Sequence record: OZ346205.1
DNA length: 64,000 nt
Reading direction: 5' to 3' (one strand)
Origin: a phage
The notes under the pieces were generated by a model. The model saw nothing but the letters and a program-made list of their open reading frames with translations, searched no databases and had not been told where the DNA came from. Below are positions 4,376 to 61,555 of the stretch, in pieces. Position numbers and translations under genes: made by a program. Numbering within the stretch: the stretch's first letter is position 1; every line of letters starts with the position of its first letter.

Positions 4376-6799
4376 ATGAGTATGTGGTCTTTCGATTTTG
4401 AGTCATCCGGTTTGCTGGAAGACCCAGATCTTTATTATCACTGCGGTCTGTTTAAAGAGCTGAATAAGAACCGTTTTATGCTGTTCCTTCCTCTAAATGA
4501 CCGCACACACTACTCCGAGGAGGATATAGAAAAGGCTAAGAACTTCATTCTGTCAAAGAAAACTCTTTATAAAGATTTTGAAGTTCGCATAGCAGATTTT
4601 TCGGAGTTGGAAGGTTGGCTTACAGGCAATTCTGACTGGTCACCAACAGCTTTGAACTGCCATAACTGCTACAGTTATGACTTTATGCTAATGGAAAGAT
4701 TATCCGGTATTCATTTTGATATGTTCCGTGATCCTAAATGCATGGGGACTATCAACGACCACCAGGTTAACCTGTTTGATACGTTGGCTATGAGCCGAAT
4801 CTTGTGGCCTGATCGCCCTTTACCAAAAGGTTGTCCGGACGCTGTATTCAACCCGGTTACTAAGAAAATGCAACCTGTTGGTCCTCACGGCCTTATGGCA
4901 TGGGGCTACGCCCTTGGTAACCAGAAAGTTCAAATTGATGACTGGCGCGATCTTCCGTTGTGGAAGTATGTGGATCGTGTATTCGAGGACGTTATCATCC
5001 AGGAGCTGCTCTGGAAAGAGCTGGTAGCGGAATCAAAAGGTGTATTCTACGGCAAATCTGACATGCAGAACTTTATGTACGATCCAGCCAAAGAGAAGCC
5101 GAAAGGGTTCAAGAAGATCACCTGGAAGAACGCATTACGTCGAGGCATGCTGCAGCACTTCCTGATGGAGCTGCAGGCCCGTCAGGGTGTATACTTCGAC
5201 ATAGATGGAGCTATTGCTTTACGTGACCGTTGCGATGCGTGGATGAAAGAAATCGCTGATCGTGTTGAACCACAACTACCTTTAAAAGAGCTGTCAATGT
5301 CTCAGCGGCCCAAGTTCCCTGAAAAGCCGTTTAACCAAGACGGGACAATCTCTAATAATGGTTGGAAATGGTTAAAAGATAAGCTTGGCTATCCTGTAGA
5401 CATGAGTGCTTTAGAGTTCAAAGCCCCGCCTAAGCGAGCATTTACCTCTACAGGAGATGTCAGCAAGATGGGGATAAAATGGTGTGAAGAGATGGGCTGC
5501 AAAGACCCCGATAAGATGGCTGATTTCTTGAGAGGCTATATTAAGGGCACCTCCACACCACAACCCTTACCTAAAGAGCTGATGGATCAGGCAATAAGTG
5601 ATCTGCAGCAGAAGCGAATGCCTGACTGCAAGATACCTATGAAAATCAGCAATCAGGACGACATCAAGCGATACCTAATCAGTGCTGGTTGGCTCCCAAC
5701 AATGTGGAGAACTAAAGATGTAACTAAAGACAGCAAGAAGAAAGCTTTACCTGATGCAGATGTTGATGCACGAGTATATGCATATATGGACGAGCTTTTG
5801 GAGTCAGAGTATTGTGACCTAATTATCAACTTCTGGAACAAAACTGATGCTAAGTTCCAGACAACCGTGCACAAGTTCCGAAGCTTTCCTAACTCCGAAA
5901 GGATTAAAAAGGAAGTATTCGGGAAAATACGTAGAAAAGCCAGGGCACTTATTACTTCTCCGCAACTGAAAGATACGTTTGGACACCTATGCCCAAATCT
6001 TGAAAAATTGAACGGAGAGATGGCTAAAGATATCGTCTTGTGGTTATCATTGCGAAACCGCAGATCGGTCCTTGATCCAATCAAGGAGGATAAGGTTGAT
6101 ACTGGTCTTCTTAATCACCCACGTTTGAAGATTGACCATAAGCTTCCTGCTAAAAGCTCTGGATTAACAAACACTTCCAGACAGAAACACAGTATTTGTG
6201 CAAACATGCCTAAACCATCTCCTAAAGTGGTTATGGGTAAAGAGATGCGTAGTCTGTGGGGTGTTCCTCCGGGATACTTTGAGATCGGTATTGACGGGTC
6301 CAACTTAGAGCAGCTTATCGGGGCTTGGGGTGCCTTTGAGTTCGACAACGGCCTGTATTATGATGTTGTAAGTAACGGAGACGCACACCAAAACAATGCT
6401 GAGGCATATACAAAAGTGGCAGGCAGAGAGGTGTCCCGTAACGACGGTAAACCTATCACGTATGGGGTTATGTACGGGGCACAAAAAGATAAAGTTGCAG
6501 ATATGTTGGACATCTCCCCAGAGTTGGGACAAAGGGTAATCGATGCACTCTGGGATGCCAACCCAGGTCTTAAGGGGCGCAAAGAGGATCTGGAGAAATT
6601 CTGGGAAGCAACAGGTAAGAAGTTTATCTACTCTTTTGATGGTCATGCTATCTGGACCCGATCTAAACACTCTTTACTTAATGCATACCAACAAAATGGC
6701 GGTGCATCGTTGTGTGACTTAGTTGGAATACTCATGCACCACCAGATGGTGAAGCGTGGGTGGTACGATGAAGGTGTTCGTCGTATTATTTATTACCAT
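4376..6799 (+). CDS. DNA polymerase, family A (Pol I-like), exon 1
   Basis: 3'-5' exo motif FDFESSG; motif A IDGSNLEQ; motif B R..GKPITYGVMYG; frame ends ...RRIIYYH just before motif C. Confidence 0.8.
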
Positions 6800-7075
6800 A
6801 AATAACATTGTGGCTTCATAGAGTAATCTATGTCGAATAACCTCTTTAACTGCGGGAAGCCTAAACCTTATGGCAAGGTAATCCGCAACGAAGCGCTCAA
6901 AAGAGCGAACGCTCAGAGGCCATTCCGAAAGGAAGTAGACCAGCAAGTGCGGTCGAAATGGGAGGATTCCTGTGGTTGCTTATCATAGGAATATGAGATG
7001 GTCCGATCCTACGTGAAAACGTATGGCTATGCACGTAATGGTGCGGGGTAGCTTAACGACCTACCTGAACTATTG
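6800..7075 (+). mobile_element. group I intron (no ORF) splitting DNA polymerase motif C
   Basis: P-like ACTGCGGGAAGCC (6848), Q-like AATCCGCAACG (6880), S-like GAGATGGTCCG (6995); follows exonic U, ends in G; exon junction YYH|DE restores motif C. Confidence 0.65.
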
Positions 7076-8188: not shown

Positions 8189-8560
8189 ATGTTAGTAAAA
8201 GGTACCCACACAGTCAAACAACGTATTGAAGTTGAGATTGATGATTGTGAGCTGAAGCATATTTTACGGTCATGCTCCAACGTTTTGCTCCTTAGTATTC
8301 TTCAGGAGCGAGCGGAGAACGAGTTCTTAAATGCATTGGCAGGCCGTCCCGGTGACTTCTGTGTGCGTAAGCGTGGTGACAACAAGTCGTGGTTGTGGGA
8401 GATCGATGCCGACTGGGATTACCACAAAAATGAGGGTATAGATGAGCCTATTCGTGAACTGACGGACAAAGAGATTCAGATGTACAATGAAGTTTGTCAT
8501 TGGGCAACACGCCAACAAATTTACCTAGACCCTGTGTGGCTGATTGAAAATAGTCGTTGA
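8189..8560 (+). CDS. hypothetical protein
   Basis: ATG 8189 preceded by AGAGGAGG; track start 8162 is TTG. Confidence 0.55.
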   Translation: MLVKGTHTVKQRIEVEIDDCELKHILRSCSNVLLLSILQERAENEFLNALAGRPGDFCVRKRGDNKSWLWEIDADWDYHKNEGIDEPIRELTDKEIQMYNEVCHWATRQQIYLDPVWLIENSR

Positions 8561-8585: not shown

Positions 8586-8636
8586 ACTCCTCACAAACAG
8601 AGTATTGATTGTTAAATAATTAAGGAGACCTCTAAG

Positions 8637-8891
8637 ATGAAAATCATGTTGAAACCAGAATGCGTTGCAAACGACCGAGCTTTTAAAGATTGCACACTTG
8701 GCGCTACTTATGAAGCAGAGTTTTGTGAGAACCCTTTGGTAAAAGCCCTTTTGGAAGAAGGGGCCCCTCTATCACAAGAAGAGCTTGATGAGCTGGAAAA
8801 CTCAGCACAGTGCCTTACCTTTAAAGATGATGAAGGAGACTCTGTCTGGTGCACTGTTAACGAAGTAGTTTTTGTAAAAACTGAACATTAA
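8637..8891 (+). CDS. hypothetical protein (paralogue of 8955..9215)
   Basis: AAGGAGA RBS; shares AF(K/R)DCT ... GD.V.CT pattern with next gene. Confidence 0.55.
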   Translation: MKIMLKPECVANDRAFKDCTLGATYEAEFCENPLVKALLEEGAPLSQEELDELENSAQCLTFKDDEGDSVWCTVNEVVFVKTEH

Positions 8892-8894
8892 TAC

Positions 8895-8923
8895 TTGACA
8901 ACAGCGATAGGACCTAATACAAT
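8895..8923 (+). promoter_or_regulatory. sigma70-like promoter
   Basis: TTGACA - 17 nt - TACAAT. Confidence 0.5.
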
Positions 8924-8954
8924 GGTCCTATCAAAACGAAAGGGGACCACAGCA

Positions 8955-9215
8955 ATGACCAAACAATATCAACGAATTAAAGCCAAGGTTAAGCCAGACT
9001 ATCTAGAGAAGGACTCTGCTTTTCGGGACTGCACAGCTGACAAAGTTTACACAGGGGCCGTCCTGTTGAACGATAAACTTGAAGTAGATGTGCTGGGTAA
9101 AGAGGCCGTTATCGAGGATGACAACGGTGACTGTGTTTTCTGCACCACACGAGAGCTAGAAGTCTTAGAATATTTCGGTGAAATCTTCAACTCCTTAGAC
9201 GACGAGGAAGCGTGA
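8955..9215 (+). CDS. hypothetical protein (paralogue of 8637..8891)
   Basis: ORF 8895..9215; start moved to ATG 8955 downstream of the promoter -10, AAAGGGGA RBS. Confidence 0.5.
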   Translation: MTKQYQRIKAKVKPDYLEKDSAFRDCTADKVYTGAVLLNDKLEVDVLGKEAVIEDDNGDCVFCTTRELEVLEYFGEIFNSLDDEEA

Positions 9216-15395: not shown

Positions 15396-15433
15396 GGAGG
15401 ATTTCTAAAATGGATTTCCTCCTTTTGATATTT
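15396..15433 (+). terminator. rho-independent terminator
   Basis: GGAGGA ... TCCTCC stem followed by TTTTGATATTT. Confidence 0.5.
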
Positions 15434-15677
15434 CACCGGGCCAGATATTTTAAAATTCTTAGAAAATCAGAAAATGGATCGAAAACTAAAATGGATTTTT
15501 CAAGACAGGCACGATAAGATGTGCTGCTCATTCTATCGTTCGCACCGTACTTTAAGTCACTATTCCAGATTTTTCCGCACATACTCTCACCCTTCTACCA
15601 GAACTTTCCCAGCTTACCTCTGACCTTTTATAACAATAAGTCCATTATTATCAGAAAGTTTCGGCACATCTCTTTCG

Positions 15678-15872
15678 GTACTCGATCTGTTTTTCATTTC
15701 AAAGACCTGATTTTCTGAAAATTTTTCTCGATAAATTTCTTAGTACTCGATCTGTTTTTCATTTCAAAGACCTGATTTTCTGAAAATTTTTCTCGATAAA
15801 TTTCTTAGTACTCGATCTGTTTTTCGTTTTCTGAATCGGATTTTCTGGAAATCGTTCCAGCTCTCGACCTGA
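15678..15872. repeat. tandem direct repeat, 65-bp unit x3 (third copy divergent)
   Basis: GTACTCGATCTGTTTTTCATTTCAAAGACCTGATTTTCTGAAAATTTTTCTCGATAAATTTCTTA repeated at 15678, 15743, 15808. Confidence 0.8.
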
Positions 15873-16030
15873 AATTTTTGGGGACGAAATCGATTTTTCG
15901 TTTTCAGAAATGGATTTTTAAAATTTCTATATGGGAATATTTTATGGGATACTGTTTTATAGGAAATTGTTACGGAGGGTAATTAGCATGCTAATTAAAT
16001 TTATTAAATGCGAGGAGTTCTCATTTAGAA

Positions 16031-16260
16031 TTTTGAATGATAATCATTCTCGTTTGCAGAATAACGGGCAGGCCCGGTGATTGTCTCCCGGCCCCTACTG
16101 CCCCGGCTTGTTATTATAGTATCACACAGGACAAAGAAAGCAAGGATTTTTTGCATAAATTTTTAAATGATAATGATAACCGTTCTCATTTTATGCAGCG
16201 CCCATCCCCGGTGGTTGTCTCCCCCGTCACCGGTGCCTGCCGTCCTTTCGATAGGTATAT
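16031..16260. repeat. twin GC-rich hairpin elements with conserved loop
   Basis: Two copies (about 16031-16110 and 16160-16260) share AATGATAAT ... GCAG ... CCGGTG(A/G)TTGTCTCCC ... CTGCC, each a long GC stem. Confidence 0.5.
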
Positions 16261-16446
16261 CGTGCCACCTGGCGGGGCCGCTGTCAACACTTTTCAAAAA
16301 ATTTTTCTAACCTGATGCGCTAACCGCTGCAACCTGGCGGGGTCAGCCTGGCAGGACCTAACTGACCGGGTAGGAGAGAATGAAGGCTTGTAAACCTGGT
16401 GGGCCTATGCTACAGGATAGGTAACAATTGAAGAGGAGGTACAAAA

Positions 16447-16898: not shown

Positions 16899-16962
16899 GT
16901 ATTGACATACAGTCCGACACCAAATACACTAAAAGCACAAAAGACACTAAGAGGATAAAATC

Positions 16963-17361
16963 ATGAAAACCACTACCTTTAATTTTGATAATGCAGACTT
17001 TTCTTTTTCTGATGTCAAGAACTGCCGCCGTGATCGTGGATTTTACAAGGCTTATAATCTGGTGGGCCTGGACGATGACAATAATTTGCACGAAGTAGCT
17101 GAGATCCGGTATTATGCCGCCGCCAGCGGTAACACTAACTACTGCGTTTTTTGGATACACGACAACAAGAACAATAAGTACGGTTATACTGGTGGCAAGG
17201 CGAGCGGTCACGGTTACGATAAAGCTAATGCAGCACTTGAGAGCGCATTAAATGCTATGGGGATCACTGCCAACGGCTGGATCTATGAAGAAGAGTTTTT
17301 GTCGGCACTTGCTGACCACCTGGGCTATAAAAAGCACATTGTAACATGCGCCCACGAATAA
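16963..17361 (+). CDS. hypothetical protein
   Basis: AAGAGGA RBS; promoter TTGACA-N17-TACACT upstream. Confidence 0.55.
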   Translation: MKTTTFNFDNADFSFSDVKNCRRDRGFYKAYNLVGLDDDNNLHEVAEIRYYAAASGNTNYCVFWIHDNKNNKYGYTGGKASGHGYDKANAALESALNAMGITANGWIYEEEFLSALADHLGYKKHIVTCAHE

Positions 17362-17367
17362 AAATTG

Positions 17368-17395
17368 TTGACACGCTGCAAAATTCAAGTAAACT
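17368..17395 (+). promoter_or_regulatory. sigma70-like promoter
   Basis: TTGACA - 16 nt - TAAACT. Confidence 0.5.
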
Positions 17396-17405
17396 AGTCA
17401 CAAAA

Positions 17406-17424
17406 GGCGGGAATGTTTCCCGCC
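17406..17424 (+). promoter_or_regulatory. 5' leader hairpin (conserved leader architecture)
   Basis: GGCGGGAA-TGT-TTCCCGCC just after predicted TSS, then AACACAAAGGAAAAAGATC-ATG. Confidence 0.45.
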
Positions 17425-17443
17425 AACACAAAGGAAAAAGATC

Positions 17444-17848
17444 ATGAATAAGAACGTACGCCGCATCATGAACGAACTGGCAAACGATGAAAAAATTATT
17501 GACATGCATTTGATCAACATTTGCCGCCGTTGTGTAACATACAACAACCGCGCCGCAAAAGCGCGTGAGATGAACGCAAAAGGCACCTTAAAGCCATTCC
17601 AGGTGGTGGTAAAGGCCATTAAAGATGTAACTAATACGGCAAACCAGGTACAGGGGAACACCAACGAGAGTACCAATATTGATCCGGCTTACATCATGAA
17701 ACGGATCCGGACCTGCAAGAACAAAGAGCAAGTGTATAATGTCATAGACTGGTTGGATTCTATGGGCGATGTGGTGTACAATAGATTCTCGGCAGCTATT
17801 GAGATCCAGCTTGACAGGTTAGACGGTAAAGTACTTAAAACTTACTAA
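17444..17848 (+). CDS. hypothetical protein
   Basis: AAAGGA RBS. Confidence 0.55.
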   Translation: MNKNVRRIMNELANDEKIIDMHLINICRRCVTYNNRAAKAREMNAKGTLKPFQVVVKAIKDVTNTANQVQGNTNESTNIDPAYIMKRIRTCKNKEQVYNVIDWLDSMGDVVYNRFSAAIEIQLDRLDGKVLKTY

Positions 17849-17859
17849 ATTTATTTTTA

Positions 17860-17883
17860 GATGGCCTTGACTCCAGGGCCATC
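17860..17883. repeat. palindromic element GATGGCC-N10-GGCCATC (copy 1)
   Basis: Directly after stop codon; loop holds TTGACT; followed by AATAAAGTAAAT. Confidence 0.6.
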
Positions 17884-17928
17884 AATAAAGTAAATTAATC
17901 TCAGCTAAGCGAAAAAGGGGGCTTTAAG

Positions 17929-18048
17929 ATGAGCACTACACGCCAATACACAAAGGTAACTATTATCGCCTGCGTTGTCGGTTACATCCTGGCGCAAATG
18001 TTAATGAGTAGCGCTAACAGTTTTGCAAAATTTTTCTTAAATTTTTAA
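17929..18048 (+). CDS. small hydrophobic protein (39 aa)
   Basis: AAAAGGGGG RBS 7 nt before ATG; predicted single TM segment. Confidence 0.4.
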   Translation: MSTTRQYTKVTIIACVVGYILAQMLMSSANSFAKFFLNF

Positions 18049-18076
18049 TTGACAAGCTAACTTAGATTGATATACT
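18049..18076 (+). promoter_or_regulatory. sigma70-like promoter
   Basis: TTGACA - 16 nt - TATACT. Confidence 0.55.
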
Positions 18077-18127
18077 TAAACACGTAAACGGGAAAACTTC
18101 CCAGAACACACAAAAGGAGAAAACACC

Positions 18128-18469
18128 ATGACTACTATGGCCGCCGCAGAAAAAGCTATTCAGATCGCCGCACTGAAAAAACAGATCGCAGACCTTGAGA
18201 ACAAGATCGATAACTTTGAAATCGACGAGGACAAGTACGACGAAAACTATGATGAATGGTTAGACGAGATCTACGGCGAAATTATGATCGGAAACATTTC
18301 TTTTCTTCCGTCGCGTATCCTCAAGGAGCTAGATCCTATCGCTTACCGCTGCGGATTTAGCGACTACATCGACAGCCTGGATATTGAGGACGATGAAGAA
18401 TACCAGGAATTACAGACAGAGTTAGAAGAAGCAAAAGAAGAGCTTGCAGAACTGGAAGAAAACGAGTAA
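18128..18469 (+). CDS. hypothetical acidic protein
   Basis: AAAGGAGA RBS; leader hairpin GGGAA-AAC-TTCCC at 18090. Confidence 0.55.
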   Translation: MTTMAAAEKAIQIAALKKQIADLENKIDNFEIDEDKYDENYDEWLDEIYGEIMIGNISFLPSRILKELDPIAYRCGFSDYIDSLDIEDDEEYQELQTELEEAKEELAELEENE

Positions 18470-18480
18470 GATTATTTTTA

Positions 18481-18504
18481 GATGGCCTTGACTCCAGGGC
18501 CATC
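18481..18504. repeat. palindromic element GATGGCC-N10-GGCCATC (copy 2)
   Basis: Same sequence as copy 1, directly after stop of 18128..18469. Confidence 0.6.
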
Positions 18505-18558
18505 AATAAAGTAAACTTTATACTGTTAACACTGAACTAATGCATAGGAGTTAAAACC

Positions 18559-18804
18559 ATGGCAGCACTAATCACCAAATATTATGCCCCTACCAACACC
18601 AAAAGCGCCCGTATCATGGTAAAAGGCTTCGGACGTAAAAAGGTGTACACCTGGGATTATGCCTTAGACACGGAAGACAACTACACCAACGCGATGACCG
18701 ATTTTATTAATGATCTGAACACGCGGATCTTGACAAATTATAAAATTACCGATATTGCCTATATAGGGGAAGGCGGGATCTGTTTTGTCGGTATCGTCAA
18801 ATAA
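18559..18804 (+). CDS. hypothetical protein
   Basis: TAGGAG RBS. Confidence 0.5.
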   Translation: MAALITKYYAPTNTKSARIMVKGFGRKKVYTWDYALDTEDNYTNAMTDFINDLNTRILTNYKITDIAYIGEGGICFVGIVK

Positions 18805-18879
18805 GCTGTTTTTTCGGTGGTCCTGGTAGCAGGGCCATCTATAAAGATAGTTTATCAATACAATGAAAGGAGAAAGTAC

Positions 18880-19233
18880 ATGATCAGCGGGGCAAGTTTT
18901 ATTATTGGCGCTATTGCTACGGCTTTAATTGTAAACAAGATCCAATCTAAAAACGAAAAAGATAGCAACGCCCTTACAGAATACCCGTTTTGGGTATTCA
19001 ACGACAATGAAGACTATATTATCAAGTACAAGAATGAGAAGGGCGACCAGGTAACACCGCGACCGATCCCGGCTTACAAGATGCAAGAAACACTATACCG
19101 CCTAAAGGCTGGAGGCGCAAAAATCGTAGACTTTTGGGGATACGATCACACAGATCAGGAAGTTATAAAGCGCCGTATCCGGGCTATTCAGGCCAATATT
19201 GAAGTTAGCAAGGGGGGAATATATGAAGATTAA
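18880..19233 (+). CDS. membrane-anchored protein
   Basis: ORF 18817..19233; ATG 18880 after AAAGGAGAAAG; N-terminal TM helix. Confidence 0.5.
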   Translation: MISGASFIIGAIATALIVNKIQSKNEKDSNALTEYPFWVFNDNEDYIIKYKNEKGDQVTPRPIPAYKMQETLYRLKAGGAKIVDFWGYDHTDQEVIKRRIRAIQANIEVSKGGIYED

Positions 19234-19420
19234 TTTTGAGAAGATTGTAAAGCGATCTCATGCTTCCGAAGAGCTGCCGGAACGCCGCCAGCGCAACAAT
19301 AAACTGAATAAGCCAAAAAGATTTGGGAAGATCTGGCGGAATCATTATGATCGCAAATTACCGGGCCTGCTTTTGGAACGTGAACGACAGGCGGAACGAT
19401 ACCGCCACAAAGGCAAATAA
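19223..19420 (+). CDS. hypothetical basic protein
   Basis: ORF 19199..19420; ATG 19223 after AAGGGGGG. Confidence 0.45.
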   Translation: MKINFEKIVKRSHASEELPERRQRNNKLNKPKRFGKIWRNHYDRKLPGLLLERERQAERYRHKGK

Positions 19421-19428
19421 CAACCAAC

Positions 19429-19456
19429 GCCCCGCCATTGTGCGGGGCTTTTTATT
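19429..19456 (+). terminator. rho-independent terminator
   Basis: GCCCCGC-CATTGT-GCGGGGC followed by TTTTTATTT. Confidence 0.65.
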
Positions 19457-19601
19457 TCTATCCTACGAATAGCGCCCCTGGTTGGCCCTGTAAGCGCCAA
19501 AAAGGCCCCACCTATGCAATCGCCCACCTTTAACCTGAAAACATCGCTTAGGGCCGTTTTATGGCGTTAAAAATATCATTGACAGTGATTTTATTTAAAG
19601 C

Positions 19602-19629
19602 TTGACATCTTAAACAGGTTAGCTATACT
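19602..19629 (+). promoter_or_regulatory. sigma70-like promoter
   Basis: TTGACA - 16 nt - TATACT. Confidence 0.5.
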
Positions 19630-19663
19630 AACCACATCAAAGAGAGAGAAAGGAGTAAACGCC

Positions 19664-19924
19664 ATGCGTAAATTAAAAAATTTTGATAAAGTTGATGTTG
19701 TCCTGAATAATTTTTACTACTGCAACAACAAGGCCATTTGGTGGCGTGATAGTTCCACCGATAAAGTCAAGGCGCGCTTTCTCCAGGGGCACTGGCAAGG
19801 CCGCCCAGTGATTAAAATCATGGGGCAATTGGTAGCGTTTAAAAATTGCCGCCGTGTTGATGACGTTGAAGAGATCTTGAATATTTTACGCCACAATAAT
19901 TTAAAAAATAGTGTTGACAAGTAA
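19664..19924 (+). CDS. hypothetical protein
   Basis: AAAGGAG RBS. Confidence 0.55.
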   Translation: MRKLKNFDKVDVVLNNFYYCNNKAIWWRDSSTDKVKARFLQGHWQGRPVIKIMGQLVAFKNCRRVDDVEEILNILRHNNLKNSVDK

Positions 19925-19941
19925 ATCTCAATAAGTATACT
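19914..19941 (+). promoter_or_regulatory. sigma70-like promoter
   Basis: TTGACA - 16 nt - TATACT, overlapping 3' end of upstream gene. Confidence 0.5.
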
Positions 19942-19951
19942 TAAGCACACA

Positions 19952-19970
19952 GGCGGGAAGTTTTCCCGCC
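19952..19970 (+). promoter_or_regulatory. 5' leader hairpin
   Basis: GGCGGGAA-GTT-TTCCCGCC (same arms as 17406) then ACTAACAAAGAAAATAGGAG. Confidence 0.45.
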
Positions 19971-19998
19971 ACTAACAAAGAAAATAGGAGAAAATATC

Positions 19999-20622
19999 AT
20001 GACCACCGTTAACATTACCACAGGTTGCAATTTATCTTTCGACGTGCTGACCGACGAACAAAAAGAAAAAGCTGTTGAAATGGTCCGCGAAAGAGAAGAA
20101 CACAGCGGGGATAACTTTTTTGCAGAAAGTGTAATTGAATACTATAAAGAATATGTTTTTCCAGAGTACGGGCTTGAAGATACCAAGGTACAGTGGTCCG
20201 GCTTTTGGTGTCAAGGCGACGGCGCATCAATTAGCGCTGAAAATGTAAACTTAGAAAAATTCTTGCGTAAGGTTAAAGCGCTTACAAAATTTCGCTCAAT
20301 TAGACACTTGTTCGGCACAATGCACGATGGCGAACTATCAGCCAGCGTTGAACGTATCCCGTTTAGCCATTATCATCACGAAAACACAATAGGCGGGTGC
20401 ATCGATACCAACTGGCTAGACCTGACCACCAAGCAAGAGGATAAAATTGAAGAGCTGGAAGAGCTGATCACCGAGACGGTACGGGAGCTATCCCGCAAGG
20501 TTTACGTAGACCTGGAGCAGGCCTATCTTGAACAATTCACTACCGAAAACCTGATCGGCCTTATCGAGGCCAATGATTGGCGGTTTGATGTGGATGAGTA
20601 TGGCGAGATGACTTTTTCATAA
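19999..20622 (+). CDS. hypothetical acidic protein
   Basis: TAGGAGA RBS; 207 aa. Confidence 0.55.
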   Translation: MTTVNITTGCNLSFDVLTDEQKEKAVEMVREREEHSGDNFFAESVIEYYKEYVFPEYGLEDTKVQWSGFWCQGDGASISAENVNLEKFLRKVKALTKFRSIRHLFGTMHDGELSASVERIPFSHYHHENTIGGCIDTNWLDLTTKQEDKIEELEELITETVRELSRKVYVDLEQAYLEQFTTENLIGLIEANDWRFDVDEYGEMTFS

Positions 20623-20630
20623 ATAAAGTG

Positions 20631-20658
20631 TTGCAATAACCTAAAAACCTGCTATATT
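20631..20658 (+). promoter_or_regulatory. sigma70-like promoter
   Basis: TTGCAA - 16 nt - TATATT; leader hairpin GGGGCAA...TTGCCCC at 20668. Confidence 0.45.
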
Positions 20659-20711
20659 AAAACTCAAGGGGCAAGACGTTTGCCCCCACACAAAACAAAG
20701 AGGAAAACATC

Positions 20712-21092
20712 ATGAAAAACACTACTAAAGCTATTGACACCGTTATGTTTAACCTGGTTACCTTTCGCGAGGATATGAAAGATCTTCCACGTGAAACAGT
20801 GTGCGATCACATTGAAAACTATCGCAAACTAATCAAAGAGTTGCCTTTAAAACGTGACCAGTATGCGGCTAACGCCATGCTTAATGCCATGATCAAAAAG
20901 ATGATTCAGTGTGATTTAACTCTGGCCTATGACTATGCGGGTGGTCGTTTTGCAGTATACAATCAGCCCGTGCCCGGTATGGGCACCACCGAAGAATTGC
21001 ACGCGCTCAATCTAAAACAAGACGTATGGGATAACATGCCCCGCGTGGTGGTGTGGGCAGAAAGCGGAAAGATTTACGGCGATAATTTTTAA
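20712..21092 (+). CDS. hypothetical protein
   Basis: AAAGAGGA RBS. Confidence 0.55.
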   Translation: MKNTTKAIDTVMFNLVTFREDMKDLPRETVCDHIENYRKLIKELPLKRDQYAANAMLNAMIKKMIQCDLTLAYDYAGGRFAVYNQPVPGMGTTEELHALNLKQDVWDNMPRVVVWAESGKIYGDNF

Positions 21093-21156
21093 TCAGGTAA
21101 CAGGCGGCATATTTGCCGCCTTATTGTTAAACAGAGTTGCAAAAGAGGTACATAGA

Positions 21157-21528
21157 ATGGAATTTATTATTTTGGCTGTAGTAGTTGCCTTGTTCAACGC
21201 CTGGATCGCTGGCAAGATGGGTAGATCCGCCTTTTTATGGTTTATTATATCTATTTTCCTGGGGGTGGTTGCAACTATTGTACTTGTTATCCTTGCAATT
21301 GTTGACAAGGGGAATAATAGAAAGGGTAAAGTATTTTCAGACCTGTACGACGCTCAAACGTTTGTCAACGCCTATTATAGTGATCTTCCAGTCTCCCTAC
21401 GCTGCAGCCTGGCACAACAAGTTTTCGATGAGGCTAAAACCAGAGATCAAGCCCATGAGATATGTTTAACTGAGGCGGATCGCCTATTTGAGAGGAATAG
21501 AAAATATGTGGGCCAACCGTTTAAATAA
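21157..21528 (+). CDS. membrane protein (2 predicted TM helices)
   Basis: ORF 21124..21528; ATG 21157 after AAAGAGG. Confidence 0.5.
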   Translation: MEFIILAVVVALFNAWIAGKMGRSAFLWFIISIFLGVVATIVLVILAIVDKGNNRKGKVFSDLYDAQTFVNAYYSDLPVSLRCSLAQQVFDEAKTRDQAHEICLTEADRLFERNRKYVGQPFK

Positions 21529-21751
21529 TGCCACGTTAATTAATCCCTTTAGTGAAGATTTGAAGCCAGCCGCCTGGCGTGATGGATTCAATAACGAACG
21601 CTTTATTTTCAAGCCTGATCTTGAGGAATTTTATAACAATGGATCGAACAACAGCGGAGATAATTTTTCTTGGGATGTGCGTGGTGATGGTACTCCTGGG
21701 GGCCATTGTAAACCACGTCACTACTACCAGGAGGAAAGAGGGAGACGATGA
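21506..21751 (+). CDS. hypothetical protein
   Basis: ORF 21488..21751; ATG 21506 after GAGAGGAA. Confidence 0.45.
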   Translation: MWANRLNNATLINPFSEDLKPAAWRDGFNNERFIFKPDLEEFYNNGSNNSGDNFSWDVRGDGTPGGHCKPRHYYQEERGRR

Positions 21752-21867
21752 CAACCAAGGATAAGCCCCGTACCGATAAGGCGCGCCGGGTTATGGTATG
21801 GCTTGAGATCATCGCCCTTGAAATATTGCTAGGCGTAGGGATGTACTTTATCGCTGTAAGTAACTAA
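21748..21867 (+). CDS. small membrane protein (39 aa)
   Basis: AGGAGGAAAGAGGGAG RBS; ATGA overlap with upstream stop; hydrophobic C-terminal half. Confidence 0.45.
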   Translation: MTTKDKPRTDKARRVMVWLEIIALEILLGVGMYFIAVSN

Positions 21868-21871
21868 GAGC

Positions 21872-21902
21872 GGCCCCCGATCATGGGGGCCTATCTTTTA
21901 AA
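21872..21902 (+). terminator. rho-independent terminator
   Basis: GGCCCCC-GATCAT-GGGGGCC then TATCTTTTAAAAAATTTTT. Confidence 0.6.
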
Positions 21903-22005
21903 AAATTTTTCTTCCGGGGTGTTGCAATCCGGTCCGGAATGTGGATAATAACAATCAACGGGGAGCTAATCCCCACCACCACAAAAACCAGAAAGGAGAA
22001 ACAAA

Positions 22006-22206
22006 ATGAGCAACAATATCCGCGTTATTAACTTCAAAAAAGAAGAAAAAATTGCCGTGCTGATTGACGGTCAAGAAATCTTCAAGGGCGACTATGAAGA
22101 TCATCAAACGGCGATTAGTATCACTCGCGTGATTGGTTATCATAATTTCTACCCCCAAGGCGCTGAGGCAGCAGTTAAACGAATCAAAGAGATTGTAGGC
22201 CTGTAA
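22006..22206 (+). CDS. hypothetical protein
   Basis: AAAGGAGA RBS; leader hairpin GGGGA-GCTAA-TCCCC at 21960. Confidence 0.55.
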   Translation: MSNNIRVINFKKEEKIAVLIDGQEIFKGDYEDHQTAISITRVIGYHNFYPQGAEAAVKRIKEIVGL

Positions 22207-22218
22207 AATTTATTTTTA

Positions 22219-22242
22219 GATGGCCTTGACTTCAGGGCCATC
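22219..22242. repeat. palindromic element GATGGCC-N10-GGCCATC (copy 3)
   Basis: After stop of 22006..22206; loop TTGACTTCAG. Confidence 0.6.
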
Positions 22243-22299
22243 GATAAAGTAAATTTAAACCCTGTTAAAATACCACGCAGTTAACAAGGAGTGATAGAC

Positions 22300-22599
22300 A
22301 TGTTTATCCAGGCTAATAATCTTTATTTCTTTGATGGTCAGATCGTAGATGGTGTGGAAGTGGAGATCACCGGGTGCCCTGGCGGTCAGGCTATGACTTT
22401 TCGGAATAATGCCTTTGATGATTCTCATATCGTTATGAGAATGGAAGTTACGAAGCTGGACGACAAGAAAACACTTATTGACTATTCTGTGAAAGATCAT
22501 CCAGACTACCGCATGATCCATGGTGATTTGTGCATTGTTGACCGTGACAAGGTGGGCGGCATTGTGATCGCTATTGTGAACGATGTTTTCTCAAACTAA
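22300..22599 (+). CDS. hypothetical protein
   Basis: ATG 22300 after AAGGAG. Confidence 0.5.
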   Translation: MFIQANNLYFFDGQIVDGVEVEITGCPGGQAMTFRNNAFDDSHIVMRMEVTKLDDKKTLIDYSVKDHPDYRMIHGDLCIVDRDKVGGIVIAIVNDVFSN

Positions 22600-22616
22600 T
22601 TTCAGCAGGCGATTTT

Positions 22617-22967
22617 ATGAAAGTCAAACTATATTACCTTAATGAGCTTAACCCCCTTGCCCAGGTCCGCGCCCTAGCTAATACCTTGATTTGTGAGAAA
22701 TCTGTATATTGTGTTGAGCTTAACGCCATGCGTGAACGTCTCAAAGGTGGTTACTTTGACATCCATGCTGCAATCAACGGCCTGAATATGGAATTTATAC
22801 GCTTACGTAACAGCCGCCGGAATCTGGCAAGAATGGAACAAGATCCGGCCCACCTTCGTAAGCTGGTTATTGAAAATCATCTGATGTTTAATGCCGAGGG
22901 TGATTATTACCATTTTCACCGCAAACGCTGGTACCGTGGCGGCAATACAGGCAAGAATGCAAAATAA
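22617..22967 (+). CDS. hypothetical protein
   Basis: ORF track; coupled to upstream gene. Confidence 0.5.
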   Translation: MKVKLYYLNELNPLAQVRALANTLICEKSVYCVELNAMRERLKGGYFDIHAAINGLNMEFIRLRNSRRNLARMEQDPAHLRKLVIENHLMFNAEGDYYHFHRKRWYRGGNTGKNAK

Positions 22968-23005
22968 GGCCCCTAGCAGGGCCTGCAGCAATATAATCAC
23001 ATAAA

Positions 23006-23036
23006 GGCCATGCGGTTGCATGGCCTTTATTATTTT
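23006..23036 (+). terminator. rho-independent terminator
   Basis: GGCCATGC-GGTT-GCATGGCC followed by TTTATTATTTT. Confidence 0.65.
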
Positions 23037-23169
23037 GGCGTTACAACGGCATACGGGGCGCTTAAAAAATTTTTAAAGAAGTACTTGCATCATTCCCGAC
23101 AATATGGATAATAAGAGTTGTCGAGGGGGAGGCCCCCAATCGTTGACCAGATAGATAGGAGTTAAAATC

Positions 23170-23454
23170 ATGGCTATTGTTACCGCTGGCGATGTAGTAG
23201 AAATGGAAGCAAAATACTTAAAAGCGGGTATGCACATCCTACGGAATGATCAAGAGCTATTATTAACGATGGTTGACTATAATCACGGCCAGGATTATCC
23301 AAGCATCGACTACTTTTTTGAGTATGTTGATGAAGAGTTGAAAGAGGATGAGGCCTATTGCGGTGAGTTCTGCAACTTCTTTTGTCCTGATGAGGTTGTA
23401 AAGGTTATTTATCAACCTGGCGTAGCTTTCCCGCTGCACGCTATCAATAAATAA
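23170..23454 (+). CDS. hypothetical protein
   Basis: TAGGAG RBS; upstream TTGCAT/TAATAA promoter-like pair. Confidence 0.5.
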   Translation: MAIVTAGDVVEMEAKYLKAGMHILRNDQELLLTMVDYNHGQDYPSIDYFFEYVDEELKEDEAYCGEFCNFFCPDEVVKVIYQPGVAFPLHAINK

Positions 23455-23509
23455 ACCTGGCGGGGCCGAAAAGGCCCCCAATTATGAAAATAAAGAGAGG
23501 CAAATCATC

Positions 23510-23743
23510 ATGATGGAACAAATTAAACGCGCCGAGGCTATTAATGGCAACGTGATCTATTTTGTCAGCAAAAACGAAAAAGGCGTACCATATGCGGCAG
23601 TAATAGTACAACCTGACGGCGATTATTGGTTTACTGTGTACGGCGCTTATTCTTTTGGGCGTCCAGTGCATGATAAAATTTTGAAAGTAGCGAACCCTAC
23701 CGGGAAGAATATCACAGCAGAAAAATTTTTTGAAAATAGTTGA
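23510..23743 (+). CDS. hypothetical protein
   Basis: AAGAGAGG RBS. Confidence 0.5.
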   Translation: MMEQIKRAEAINGNVIYFVSKNEKGVPYAAVIVQPDGDYWFTVYGAYSFGRPVHDKILKVANPTGKNITAEKFFENS

Positions 23744-23767
23744 CATGACCATATAAGACTGTAATAT
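23740..23767 (+). promoter_or_regulatory. sigma70-like promoter
   Basis: TTGACA - 16 nt - TAATAT; leader hairpin at 23778-23793. Confidence 0.5.
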
Positions 23768-23818
23768 ATAAATCAAAGGGGGCAACGAACCCCACCAACT
23801 ACAAAGAGGATAAAAATC

Positions 23819-23998
23819 ATGGCTATTATTGCAAAGACTGAGATCATAGGCTTAGATTCTATTCTCCTCGCATATGAGGAAGCTATAGAAATGTATGTGG
23901 TTTCCTATGGTGAGTATATCCGTGAATATAAATCTATTGATCTGGCTTTTGAATGTTATATCCGCCAGGTTAATAAAGCGTACGATGATTATCGTTAA
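23819..23998 (+). CDS. small protein (59 aa)
   Basis: Below track cut-off; AAAGAGGA RBS; own promoter and leader hairpin. Confidence 0.5.
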   Translation: MAIIAKTEIIGLDSILLAYEEAIEMYVVSYGEYIREYKSIDLAFECYIRQVNKAYDDYR

Positions 23999-24004
23999 AA
24001 TAGT

Positions 24005-24033
24005 TTGACAACAGCCATCTTACAAAGCATAAT
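24005..24033 (+). promoter_or_regulatory. sigma70-like promoter
   Basis: TTGACA - 17 nt - CATAAT; leader hairpin GGCGG...CCGCC at 24040-24058. Confidence 0.45.
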
Positions 24034-24085
24034 ACATAAGGCGGTGGAATGGTCCGCCACCTGGAACAAAGAAGAGGTAAACACC

Positions 24086-24331
24086 ATGAAAAGCAATAAA
24101 GGTTATAACGGTTACAAAAACAAAACTCATTGGAATGTAAGCCTTTGGATTAATAACGATGAGTCATTGTACCGGTTGGCCCAAGGCTTTATTAACGCCA
24201 ATGCTAATCGTAATGATGCGGCGCGGGATATGATGCTTTTTCTGGAGCTAACCGGACAAGATAAGACCCTGGACGGCTTCAAGTACAGCACTACGGCGAT
24301 CCGTGCCGCGATGGTTGGAATGAAACACTAA
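24086..24331 (+). CDS. hypothetical protein
   Basis: ORF 24005..24331; ATG 24086 after AAGAAGAGG. Confidence 0.5.
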   Translation: MKSNKGYNGYKNKTHWNVSLWINNDESLYRLAQGFINANANRNDAARDMMLFLELTGQDKTLDGFKYSTTAIRAAMVGMKH

Positions 24332-24386
24332 AAGCACATAGCTGCCTTACCCTGGGGCTGTGGTAGCGGCCCCATGAATAAGGTTA

Positions 24387-24869
24387 CTAACAGAAGAGAA
24401 TAAACACCATGAAACAGAAATTAATCGATGCAGTGATCTTGGTTATTGCCCTGGGTATTGGCCTGATTGCAACCATGTCTAATATGATCTTGTCTTCCAA
24501 CGGTATCGGGTGAGGTTGGCAAATGATCACTAACAAAACAGGCAAAACGGAATTTTTACGCAACTTACAGATCGGCAAGCCTGAGATCTGGTACTGCACT
24601 AAAACACCGCGTGACGAAATGGCTTCAAAAGGGGTCATGAACGAATAAACGGCATCATCATCTGCTTCAGGGAATGCTCCCAAAGACTTCATGTCTGAGC
24701 CCTTGACAAATACAAGGTTTTGATCAAAAGCTTCTTGGGGATCAATCCGATACATATTTCGTAGAATATCGCTTACCTCCTCATCAAGAGGTGAGTATGC
24801 TGTGCACGTTTTTCCGATCAAGCTTTGAGAATCAGGGTATCCACCTGAAGTTTTAAAATAAACAATCAT
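24387..24869 (-). CDS. hypothetical protein (extent uncertain)
   Basis: 160-aa ORF with GAGGTGA RBS; N-terminal 70 aa look protein-like, C-terminal part overlaps candidate + strand small ORFs. Confidence 0.35.
   Translation of the reverse strand: MIVYFKTSGGYPDSQSLIGKTCTAYSPLDEEVSDILRNMYRIDPQEAFDQNLVFVKGSDMKSLGAFPEADDDAVYSFMTPFEAISSRGVLVQYQISGLPICKLRKNSVLPVLLVIICQPHPIPLEDKIILDMVAIRPIPRAITKITASINFCFMVFILFC
24409..24513 (+). CDS. small hydrophobic peptide (34 aa), candidate
   Basis: Leader-type hairpin at 24354-24373 and AACACC-ATG context; conflicts with antisense ORF 24387..24869. Confidence 0.3.
   Translation: MKQKLIDAVILVIALGIGLIATMSNMILSSNGIG
24523..24648 (+). CDS. small protein (41 aa), candidate
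   Basis: GGGTGAGG 7 nt before ATG; conflicts with antisense ORF 24387..24869. Confidence 0.25.
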   Translation: MITNKTGKTEFLRNLQIGKPEIWYCTKTPRDEMASKGVMNE

Positions 24870-25366: not shown

Positions 25367-25684
25367 TCATTCTCTAAAGTCAATCTTTACTTTGCCTTTC
25401 CCCTTACCTTTCTTTCCACCGCATTTAGCCAGTTGACGTGCTGCAACATCTACCATACGGTCAGTTGCCTCGTAAGCATCACTGCCTTTAGCTTTGGCAA
25501 TAACTTCTTTTCCAGAATTGTCAAAAATGAACGCCATAACTTCCTGGTGATCATTTTCAACTTTTACACTCACACGTGCATAGTTGGCAGAGGGATGCAA
25601 ACGCTCCAGCTTAGACATTTTGTGGGAAATGAAAGACACCATACCTTCAGGGATTTCTACGTTGCCAGTGATTTCAATTTGCAT
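25367..25684 (-). CDS. hpf: ribosome hibernation promoting factor / RaiA (YfiA) family protein
   Basis: MQIEITGNVEIPEG...KLERL...VSVKVEND...AKAKGSDAYEATD...ARQLAK aligns along its length with bacterial HPF/YfiA. Confidence 0.75.
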   Translation of the reverse strand: MQIEITGNVEIPEGMVSFISHKMSKLERLHPSANYARVSVKVENDHQEVMAFIFDNSGKEVIAKAKGSDAYEATDRMVDVAARQLAKCGGKKGKGKGKVKIDFRE

Positions 25685-25703
25685 AACGTGTTCCTTTTAA
25701 AGA

Positions 25704-25722
25704 AGAGGGAACCAAACCCTCT
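25704..25722 (-). promoter_or_regulatory. leader hairpin / bidirectional terminator-like stem
   Basis: AGAGGG-AACCAAA-CCCTCT between promoter and HPF RBS. Confidence 0.4.
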
Positions 25723-25731
25723 TTGAAAACA

Positions 25732-25760
25732 ATGATACTAAATCTGAAGCGTTGTGTCAA
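25732..25760 (-). promoter_or_regulatory. sigma70-like promoter for hpf
   Basis: - strand TTGACA - 17 nt - TATCAT. Confidence 0.55.
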
Positions 25761-60655: not shown

Positions 60656-60684
60656 TTGACAAACTTTGCTTAACAGTGTAATAT
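60656..60684 (+). promoter_or_regulatory. sigma70-like promoter for tRNA cluster
   Basis: TTGACA - 17 nt - TAATAT. Confidence 0.55.
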
Positions 60685-60742: not shown

Positions 60743-60817
60743 GCCCTGTTAGCTTAGTGGATAAAGCAGCGGCCTTCTAAGCCGTTGACACTGGTTCGAG
60801 TCCAGTACGGGGTGCCA
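60743..60817 (+). tRNA. tRNA-Arg (anticodon UCU)
   Basis: Cloverleaf by eye: acceptor GCCCTGT/ACGGGGT, anticodon loop CTTCTAA, T-loop TTCGAGT, encoded CCA. Confidence 0.8.
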
Positions 60818-60821
60818 AATT

Positions 60822-60908
60822 GGGGAGTTATCCCGTAGAGGTAGCGGTGTAGACTGTAAATCTATTGTCATTGCGACTCGGGTGGTTCGACTCCACCACT
60901 CCCCACCA
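60822..60908 (+). tRNA. tRNA-Tyr (anticodon GUA)
   Basis: Acceptor GGGGAGT/ACTCCCC, anticodon loop CTGTAAA, long variable arm, T-loop TTCGACT, CCA. Confidence 0.75.
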
Positions 60909-61022
60909 AATTTATATTTTTAGATGCATAAATAATACAGATAATGGCATTGATATTTATCGTCGTTTATACTAGTCACTAACTGCTCGAAAATCAGTGT
61001 CATTATCAGTATAATTTATAAA

Positions 61023-61113
61023 GGAGGGTAGGGAGCAATGGTGCTCAAGCGGTATTGAAAACCGTCCCGTTGAGGATGACTCGATGATGGTTCGATTCCA
61101 TTACTCTCCGCCA
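61023..61113 (+). tRNA. tRNA-Ser (anticodon UGA)
   Basis: Acceptor GGAGGGT/ACTCTCC, anticodon loop ATTGAAA, long variable arm, T-loop TTCGATT, CCA. Confidence 0.65.
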
Positions 61114-61211
61114 CATTGTTGACCTTGTAATTAAGCGAAAGCCGGAAGCAGAACCGGATTATCAAATGTTACAGTCGTCATCGCCGACTAGCAACATGGT
61201 CAACATACTGA

Positions 61212-61310
61212 GCTAGGTAAGCCCTTTGGCAAGGGCGAGGATTTTTAATCCTGAAAATAGACGAGGTAGTCGTTGAATACATAGGTGGTTCGATTCCATC
61301 ACCTAGCACC
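61212..61310 (+). tRNA. atypical tRNA-like gene (99 nt; anticodon loop TTTTTAA, UUU?)
   Basis: Acceptor GCTAGGT/ACCTAGC, D-arm GCCC...GGGC, T-arm GGTGG-TTCGATT-CCATC, but 30-nt extra region and imperfect anticodon stem. Confidence 0.4.
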
Positions 61311-61315
61311 TTTTT

Positions 61316-61391
61316 GCTGATGTAGCACAATCGGTAGTGCAATTGATTTGTAATCAATAGGTTGTAGGTTCAAGTCCTGCCATCAGCACCA
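61316..61391 (+). tRNA. tRNA-Thr (anticodon UGU)
   Basis: Acceptor GCTGATG/CATCAGC, anticodon arm ATTGA-TTTGTAA-TCAAT, CCA. Confidence 0.8.
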
Positions 61392-61392
61392 A

Positions 61393-61467
61393 GGCCCTGT
61401 AGCTGGAAGGTTCAAGCAAGCGACTCATAATCGCCAGACGGTGGTTCAATTCCACCCAGGGCCACCA
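61393..61467 (+). tRNA. tRNA-Met (anticodon CAU; could be Ile-lysidine type)
   Basis: Acceptor GGCCCTG/CAGGGCC, anticodon loop CTCATAA, T-loop TTCAATT, CCA. Confidence 0.75.
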
Positions 61468-61478
61468 AATAGTAAATA

Positions 61479-61555
61479 CTCCGCGTAGCTCAGCTTGGTA
61501 GAGCGCCTGATTTGGGATCAGGAGGTCGAGTGTTCGAATCACTCCGTGGAGACCA
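61479..61555 (+). tRNA. tRNA-Pro (anticodon UGG)
   Basis: Acceptor CTCCGCG/CGTGGAG, D-arm GCTC...GAGC, anticodon arm CCTGA-TTTGGGA-TCAGG, T-loop TTCGAAT, CCA. Confidence 0.8.

Follow-up and report, generated by a model that had tools for sequence, protein, structure and literature searches.

Promoter–hairpin–spacer cassettes ahead of early small genes in an rV5-like coliphage and their resemblance to promoter-early stem-loops

Promoter-early stem-loop (PeSL) cassettes have been described in the T4-like phages RB49/phi1, T4/PST, and KVP40/nt-1 (Arbiol et al. 2010, PMC2839356; Comeau et al. 2014, PMC4122927), where they have been suggested to end transcription coming from upstream and to mediate the shuffling of modules (PMC2839356, PMC4122927). 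Elements that resemble them occur in sequence record OZ346205.1, a stretch of phage DNA of 64,000 nucleotides (nt) that was analyzed as a whole and is called the window here. The window belongs to an rV5-like coliphage (Vequintavirus), and the segment at 17.3–24.1 kb is part of its early small-gene region. Seven small genes in this segment, and a weaker eighth at 23170, are each preceded by the same unit, consisting of a sigma-70 promoter, a GC hairpin at the predicted RNA start, an A/C-rich and U-poor spacer, a Shine-Dalgarno sequence, and the ATG (Table 1). An initial annotation of the window had described seven of these leaders, and all of their start codons, promoters, and hairpins were recovered in place. 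It had overlooked the resemblance to PeSLs, the role of the cassettes as joints for the gain, loss, and swap of genes, and their spread across phage families.

No published description of these leaders in rV5-like or phi92-like phages was found in the literature searched. Five of the seven promoters are already among the predicted promoters in Table S4 of the rV5 paper (PMC3606486), and the hairpins go unmentioned there because the promoters are listed only to 7 nt past the −10 hexamer.

Anatomy of the cassettes and selection on pairing

The promoters at 17368, 18049, 19914, 23740, and 24005 follow the form TTGACA-N16/17-TAxxxT with 10–11 of 12 consensus matches, and those at 20631 and 21922 (TTGCAA-N16 followed by TATATT or GATAAT) match at 9 of 12 positions. 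A/T-rich tracts, e.g., AAAAATTG and AAAATAGTG, lie ahead of the −35 box. In the minimum-energy folds, each leader forms one hairpin with a G-rich 5′ arm and a C-rich 3′ arm, and the remainder is unpaired. The energies in Table 1 are minimum free energies (MFE) of the whole leader, with z-scores against shuffles. Several single hairpins are weak, and the signal is their repetition at one fixed place: the first paired base is located 10–14 nt past the −10 hexamer in six cassettes and 6–7 nt past it at 24005.

The proposal that this repetition reflects a selected design is borne out by two counts. The composite pattern TTGACA-N16/17-NANNNT-N5/13-GGSGR matches four times in the window, always on the + strand in the cassette region, against 0.22 expected, and none of 100 shuffles reaches four. 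Furthermore, six of the 13 promoter–gene units at 16.6–24.1 kb fold to −8.4 kcal/mol or lower in the 32 nt after the start region, as do 4.8% of all 32-nt segments in the 64 kb (binomial probability ~1.6e-5, for a threshold picked after the fact).

The spacer between hairpin and ATG is indeed CA/A-rich, with 59% A, 20% C, 15% G, and 5.7% T, compared with 30/20/24/26% for the + strand at 1–24400. The trinucleotide ACA makes up 9.9% of the spacer trinucleotides (16/162 positions) versus 1.9%, a fivefold enrichment. The segment between the −10 hexamer and the hairpin is likewise A-rich (60% A, 13% T). Leaders with a hairpin are 47–57 nt long. Those without one at 16902, 19602, 13534, 33673, and other places have the same A/C-rich look at 25–36 nt, and promoter 16623 likewise lacks a hairpin; the leaders of 16623, 16902, and 19602 span 32–50 nt. 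Since similar but shorter leaders occur without it, the hairpin is best described as an optional insert of ~20 nt. Promoter 42330 (−) was rejected as a cassette, because its hairpin begins only 3 nt past the −10 hexamer and the plan is different.

The leader of hpf on the opposite strand, which encodes a Ribosomal_S30AE protein (Pfam, E 9e-12), had been assigned the same plan, and this applies in part. The promoter and the hairpin (25723–25703, minus strand) are present, but the spacer contains U (CUUUAAAAGGAACACGUU) and the leader folds no better than shuffles.

Pairing itself is under selection. In an unfitted MAFFT alignment of 23 cassettes, chosen because they carry hairpins, four of the seven stem pairs carry double compensatory changes, and the covariation score is 0.344 versus 0.173 in shuffles, a value that none of 500 shuffles reaches; slid registers give at most 0.10. 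In the same alignment, 93.8% of the cells are paired versus 83.5% in shuffles, a percentage biased by the choice of cassettes for sense-strand hairpins. A MAFFT alignment from the −10 hexamer through the hairpin (A2) was discarded because its stems were out of register, and a shorter alignment (A3) was used in its place; the counts of G-U versus A-C on A3 are confounded by register shifts. The comparison of orthologues provides a cleaner test, since these are aligned by their flanks. Among six Vequintavirus genomes, only 8 of 102 stem sites vary (8%), compared with 21 of 36 loop sites (58%) and 18% of the flanks (Fisher 2e-9). The rV5_ev147 orthologue of hairpin 20668 has three changes, with pairing kept or extended; at 24039, the stem is lengthened or shifted in register in Murica and navn.

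Some loops are exact reverse complements between relatives, namely GTT/AAC at 19960–19962 (AAC in five relatives) and TGT/ACA at 17414–17416, which indicates template switching at palindromes, since such flips are its signature at inverted repeats. The −35/−10 spacers of paralogous cassettes share identities at random level (0.25–0.34), while hexamers, arms, and Shine-Dalgarno sequences are conserved; thus, each element is kept on its own and not by recent duplication. The 351-kb coliphage Turkey5 is the exception: its spacer identity is 0.61 and its cassettes look homogenized, so that promoter spacers are not homogenized in three of the four genomes tested. The sense fold is more stable than the antisense fold in 42 of 59 cases (p 2e-4), a weak result, as the set was picked on sense folding and contains paralogues.

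Table 1. Cassettes and related leaders in the window, with leader folding energies and the corresponding rV5 promoters (PMC3606486).
Feature	Position (strand)	−35	−10	Hairpin	Spacer	Start codon (product)	Leader MFE (kcal/mol); z	rV5 promoter
Cassette 1	17368..17446 (+)	TTGACA 17368–17373	TAAACT 17390–17395	GGCGGGAA-TGT-TTCCCGCC 17406–17424	AACACAAAGGAAAAAGATC	ATG 17444 (134-aa protein, function unknown)	−14.6; −3.6	P194 (Table S4)
Cassette 2	18049..18130 (+)	TTGACA 18049	TATACT 18071–18076	GGGAA-AAC-TTCCC 18090–18102 (short)	AGAACACACAAAAGGAGAAAACACC	ATG 18128	−5.9; −1.5	P192
Cassette 3	19914..20001 (+)	TTGACA 19914	TATACT 19936–19941	GGCGGGAA-GTT-TTCCCGCC 19952–19970		ATG 19999	−14.6; −4.1	
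Cassette 4	20631..20714 (+)	TTGCAA 20631	TATATT 20653–20658	GGGGCAA-GACGT-TTGCCCC 20668–20686	CACACAAAACAAAGAGGAAAACATC	ATG 20712	−12.1; −2.7	
Cassette 5	21922..22008 (+)	TTGCAA 21922	GATAAT 21944–21949	GGGGA-GCTAA-TCCCC 21960–21974		ATG 22006	−9.5; −2.4	
Cassette 6 (weaker; absent from the initial annotation)	23085..23172 (+)	TTGCAT 23085	GATAAT 23107–23112	GGGGG-AGG-CCCCC 23125–23137	not CA-rich	ATG 23170	z −0.55	
Cassette 7	23740..23821 (+)	TTGACA 23740	TAATAT 23762–23767	GGGG-GCAACGAA-CCCC 23778–23793 (weak)	ACCAACTACAAAGAGGATAAAAATC	ATG 23819	−8.4; −1.7	P174
Cassette 8	24005..24088 (+)	TTGACA 24005	CATAAT 24028–24033	AGGCGGTGGAATGGTCCGCCACCT 24039–24062	GGAACAAAGAAGAGGTAAACACC	ATG 24086 (DUF7249 protein)	−15.7; −2.2	
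hpf unit (partial member)	25682..25760 (−)	TTGACA 25760–25755	TATCAT 25737–25732	AAGAGGG-TTTGGTT-CCCTCTT 25723–25703		ATG 25684	z −0.56	P144
Hairpin-less leader	16902..16965 (+)	TTGACA (N17 to −10)	TACACT		32-nt A/C-rich leader	ATG 16963	0	
Similar hairpin-less leader	19602–19666						−0.6	
Class-2 cassette, 50-nt repeat (family D1)	17847..17896 (+); copies 18468–18517, 22206–22255; diverged copy 18803–18852								

Gene exchange, spread, and genomic setting

The gene content of the early region differs between relatives. In six genomes, four or five indel or replacement junctions (a raw count, with no formal null model) fall in −35 boxes, class-2 repeats, or Shine-Dalgarno/ATG blocks. In phage magaca, two copies of the 50-nt class-2 repeat have recombined, with loss of 17895–18468. 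The gap in YP-6 corresponds precisely to one promoter–hairpin–gene unit, 19909–20620 (cassette 3), with the joint at AATAGTG/TTG. In rV5_ev147, only the open reading frame (ORF) 24098–24388 is missing; the junction coincides with the AACACCATGAAA block, and the gene that follows has thereby come under the 24005 leader. Two replacements begin directly past a TTGACA box, in YP-6 after 23745 and in magaca after 24013, where the sequence changes to phAPEC8-type cassettes with other genes. The cassettes probably serve as recombination joints because these short conserved blocks (−35 region, hairpin, Shine-Dalgarno/ATG) recur before unrelated small genes. Vequintavirus genomes thus contain phAPEC8/phi92-type cassettes (gtatcacataGGGCGGTAATAGTGCCGCTC) together with different small genes, at 8216–8300 and 8480–8560 of YP-6 and at 8597–8680 of magaca, an indication that cassette and gene are exchanged as a module across subfamilies.

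The class-2 repeat consists of a T-tract and a hairpin, GATGGCC...GGCCATC, with the −35 box TTGACT in its loop and TAAATT or TAAACT 18 nt later; no U-tract follows on either strand. Two copies of this repeat carry a terminator annotation in phage Murica. A further promoter, at 8895–8955 (+), has its own −10 box in a hairpin loop (GGACC-taaTACAAT-GGTCC), an arrangement typical of RB49 PeSLs.

The same layout as in the seven leaders is present in about 10 of the 18–21 promoter–gene units of each of the phi92-like phages ESCO9, 92CQ, and UAB_1, in 17 of 22 units of the phAPEC8-like phage DE16, and in 7 of 13 units of Turkey5; it is rarer in Av-05 (3/13). The design is family-wide, comprising Vequintavirinae, Stephanstirmvirinae, and one jumbo coliphage, and in several of these phages it is common and more uniform than in the window. 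Hairpins of the phi92-like, phAPEC8-like, and jumbo phages are typically GGGCGGCA-ATGG-TGCCGCTC or GGCGGGAAA-TGG-TTTCCCGCC, with TATCACATAG ahead and an A-rich spacer after. When the window is pooled with eight relatives, the core helix begins 10–13 nt past the −10 hexamer in 44 of the 65 distinct cassettes, and the median distance from the end of the helix to the ATG is ~22 nt.

The region 17300–24400, which has 283 matching records, shares 96.8% identity with Escherichia phage rV5_ev168 and 92–96% with many other Vequintavirus genomes. The rV5 paper placed the run of small + strand genes, mostly unknown, into one long transcription unit (PMC3606486). For the proteins encoded behind the cassettes, the only matches are to PHROG families of unknown function and, in one case, to DUF7249. 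Upstream of the early gene run, ~1 kb at ~15400–16400 is devoid of long ORFs on both strands; a ‘non-coding’ block is also marked on the map of the rV5 paper (PMC3606486). Just downstream, no phage record crosses 24619–24622: each of the 152 records that match here starts at either 24619 or 24622, and the left-hand alignments of all relatives end at 24621. The two sides are ~9.5 kb apart in relatives (~108.0 kb and 98.6 kb in rV5_ev147), which indicates either a ~9.5-kb deletion in this genome or an assembly join. The end of the early unit is lost with it, as is the convergent terminator region, and ORFs are truncated on both sides (24523–24648, +; 24387–24869, −). Elsewhere in the window, a group I intron lies at 6790–7025 (+; full-length match to Rfam RF00028, 64.7 bits with a threshold of 50), and six clustered tRNA genes at 60743–61552 (+) have a promoter ahead at 60656.

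Proposed function and alternative readings

Collectively, these features can be read as modular high-expression cassettes for early genes, in which the hairpin would protect the 5′ end of the mRNA, the ACA-rich spacer would aid translation, and the cassettes would double as recombination joints. We give this composite reading an even chance of being correct. Host sigma-70 RNA polymerase would begin ~7 nt past the −10 hexamer, and the first 20–25 nt of the RNA would fold into a GC-rich stem-loop that leaves ~2–6 unpaired nt at the 5′ end. This stem-loop may hinder 5′-end-dependent decay, the route by which RNase E is recruited to a 5′ monophosphate generated by RppH. The next 19–31 nt, which are A/C-rich, ACA-rich, nearly U-free, and predicted to be unstructured, would present few RNase E sites and leave a strong Shine-Dalgarno sequence open, and the spacer might act as a translation-enhancing or standby platform. 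Since the hairpin ends ~17–28 nt before the ATG, a bound ribosome would abut it. Single genes could be deleted, inserted, or swapped at the cassettes, as proposed for T4-like PeSLs.

RNase E cuts AU-rich single strands, uses a 5′-end-dependent route, and can bypass internal stem-loops, so that the closeness of the hairpin to the 5′ end matters (PMC9943677; references in PMC3997798). The tight spacing to the −10 hexamer and the ATG, the U-poor open spacer, and the selected pairing all fit a stable and well-translated early mRNA. Of the mechanisms suggested in the initial annotation, 5′-end stabilization agrees with the anatomy (a hairpin 2–6 nt past the predicted start in a leader that is otherwise unpaired and U-poor), and a translational enhancer agrees with the fivefold ACA enrichment, ACA enhancers having been shown in enterobacteria (PMC3879156).

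Several points weigh against the composite reading. Three hairpins are weak (18090, 23778, and 23125), and several strong promoters have no hairpin at all. The predicted 5′ overhang of ~2–6 nt rests on an assumed start 6–8 nt past the −10 hexamer; an earlier start would leave 5–7 unpaired nt, which could still admit RppH and RNase E. The choice of cassettes for their sense-strand hairpins biases both the percentage paired and the preference for the sense fold. In their arms (GGCGG core), loops ((A)TRG), and initial transcribed bases (TATCACATAG), the Stephanstirmvirinae cassettes resemble each other more closely than a generic hairpin would require, which could mean a specific binding partner. 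The literature searched contained no transcription start site, half-life, or reporter data for these phages, and the only experiment on comparable elements found terminator-like activity, for the RB49 PeSL211/210 stem-loop (PMC2839356).

This experiment leads to the reading proposed in the PeSL papers, in which the hairpin is an attenuator that stops or damps transcripts running in from the gene ahead and thereby leaves each small gene mainly under its own promoter. The RB49 stem-loop cut lacZ expression about as much as rrnB T1 (PMC2839356), and the genes behind the cassettes are packed head to tail, mostly without canonical terminators in between. However, the hairpins in the window lack the combination of stem and U-tract that defines intrinsic terminators: the 8 nt after the hairpin contain a mean of 0.83 T, and a terminator scan called none of the class-1 hairpins, i.e., those of the promoter–leader cassettes, on the + strand. 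A canonical terminator is already present just ahead of two cassettes, at 21872–21891 (cassette 5) and 23001–23030 (cassette 6). Where the same hairpin sequence is used as a terminator elsewhere, it carries a T-run; in IMG/VR, the hairpin GGCGGGAAnnnTTCCCGCC is followed by one in 60 of 81 occurrences examined, and only three occurrences, on contigs of rV5/phi92 size (137–153 kb), stand behind promoters and are followed by A/C-rich leaders. In addition, the hairpin is located downstream of its own promoter’s predicted start; therefore, an efficient terminator would abort its own transcripts. We consider the attenuator improbable.

The third suggestion of the initial annotation was a common regulator site, i.e., a phage or host factor that binds the hairpin, either as RNA or as a DNA palindrome past the start, and co-regulates the early genes by shut-off, antitermination, or protection. 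An operator overlapping +1 to +25 is typical of repressors, and the phi92-like, phAPEC8-like, and jumbo phages share the GGCGG core, mostly (A)TRG loops, and the conserved TATCACATAG despite random promoter spacers. The site is nevertheless disfavored in the window’s genus, where the hairpins differ widely in sequence (GGCGGGAA, GGGGCAA, GGGGA, GGCGGTGG) with pairing kept, and where the loops are hypervariable and even flipped, varying far more often than the stems in the orthologue comparison. The pairing is maintained by compensatory changes, for which a dimeric DNA-binding protein would exert no selection; covarying half-sites and hypervariable loops make a DNA operator bound by a dimeric repressor less likely in this genus. 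Moreover, Rfam gave no relevant match at gathering score in the whole window, and at E ≤ 1 in 17–26 kb only a chance-level match to Clostridium-PBP (31.5 bits versus a threshold of 94.4 bits). Overall, a common regulator site appears unlikely.

A related idea, to which we assign a similarly low probability, is that the GGCGG-core hairpin and the conserved first transcribed bases form a recognition tag, read by a dedicated phage or host factor on the nascent RNA or on DNA, which would mark an ‘early regulon’. Such a tag would allow timed shut-off, antitermination, or coordinated protection from phage-boosted RNase E, an Srd homologue being encoded by rV5 (PMC3606486). It would be common to Vequintavirinae, Stephanstirmvirinae, and a jumbo coliphage lineage and would spread along with the genes under its control.

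The inverted repeat might also have no RNA function and persist as part of a recombination-prone, self-propagating module, its leader position being incidental. The indel junctions in the cassettes, the loop flips, which reflect template switching at the DNA level, and the homogenized look of the Turkey5 cassettes would suit this explanation. Yet, most of the junctions observed fall outside the hairpin, in the −35 region or in a Shine-Dalgarno/ATG block, stems are more constrained than flanks (8% versus 18% variable sites), the position relative to the −10 hexamer and the ATG is tightly kept across subfamilies, and promoter spacers are homogenized in Turkey5 alone among the genomes tested. We give it little credence.

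Very unlikely is an antisense terminator, in which the hairpin and the A-rich stretch before it (T-rich on the other strand) stop antisense transcription into the early region: four of the seven hairpins (17424, 20687, 21978, and 23793) are called weakly terminator-like on the minus strand and the pre-hairpin segment has the A-rich composition given above, but the minus-strand tails are interrupted (TGTGTGCT, GTTGATTG), the fixed distances to the −10 hexamer and the ATG are left unexplained, and the Stephanstirmvirinae tail (CTATGTGATAC) is not U-rich beside the stem, so that an antisense role fails to account for the conserved design. Hairpin promoters of the N4 type and a T7-like promoter (CACATAGGG resembles CACTATAGGG) were dropped, as the promoters are host-type (PMC3606486) and the hairpins lie downstream of good sigma-70 promoters.

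Collections for phage therapy and biocontrol make wide use of rV5-like and phi92-like phages, yet hardly any of the early genes of these phages has an assigned function and studies of their regulation are lacking. A recognizable cassette allows simple annotation of early transcription units, helps to predict which small genes are highly expressed right after infection, and helps to explain the swapping of accessory genes, also across subfamilies, as with the phAPEC8-type cassette and gene in YP-6. If the hairpin and the ACA-rich leader do stabilize the mRNA and boost expression, they would constitute a compact natural part for expression design in E. coli and would allow a test of how phage mRNA is shielded while the decay of host mRNA is accelerated.

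Comparison with known systems

The 5′ untranslated regions of ompA and papA are described as 5′-terminal stem-loop mRNA stabilizers of E. coli in the work of Emory, Bouvet, Bricker, and Belasco, as cited in PMC3997798. On that account, they share with the present leaders a stem-loop a few nt from the 5′ end (here predicted) and an accessible ribosome binding site after it, and the block on 5′-end-dependent RNase E attack expected of them is what we infer here. The sequences are unrelated, and the ompA leader, as portrayed there, is ~130 nt long with two hairpins.

The leader of phage T7 gene 10, used in pET vectors, likewise combines a strong promoter, a stem-loop at the 5′ end of the transcript, and an efficient ribosome binding site. 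It differs in its own RNA polymerase, in sequence, and in being a single locus, compared with the repeated module here. In lambda nut/boxB, a small hairpin also occurs early in early transcripts; its conserved loop is read by the N protein, boxA is adjacent, and there is one site per operon. In the present leaders, by contrast, the loops are the most variable part, no boxA-like block was seen, and a hairpin precedes almost every gene.

For the spacer, the nearest counterparts are the ACA motifs upstream of the Shine-Dalgarno sequence of yifK and dppA, which are experimentally shown translation enhancers in enterobacteria and, as here, are located in a single-stranded stretch just upstream of the Shine-Dalgarno sequence (PMC3879156). 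The host motifs are targets of the small RNA GcvB (PMC3879156); no such regulation is implied for the phage leaders.

The greatest overall similarity is to PeSLs. In both, an early sigma-70 promoter close to the consensus and preceded by AT-rich sequence is combined with a stem-loop of G-run, loop, and C-run (−5.9 to −15.7 kcal/mol here) and, at the 3′ end, the Shine-Dalgarno sequence and start codon of a small ORFan. Both are located in variable regions, and in both the indel or replacement junctions between close relatives fall inside the cassettes. The lineage is different, being Vequintavirinae and Stephanstirmvirinae rather than Straboviridae. The RB49 stem-loop, read as a terminator, is located upstream of, between, or over the promoter hexamers (PMC2839356; 9 of 11 by the present scan), whereas the class-1 hairpin occupies a fixed place inside the transcribed leader, has no U-tract, and is followed by an ACA-rich spacer. 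Indeed, the hairpin is inside the leader in 8 of 9 cases in ESCO9 and 14 of 15 in DE16, compared with 2 of 11 in RB49. A stem-loop upstream of the start is thus absent from the class-1 cassettes and present in the class-2 repeat (17847 and its copies), which has the more classical PeSL form. The cassettes are best placed within the PeSL type, as a variant specific to their lineage, and not regarded as new in kind.

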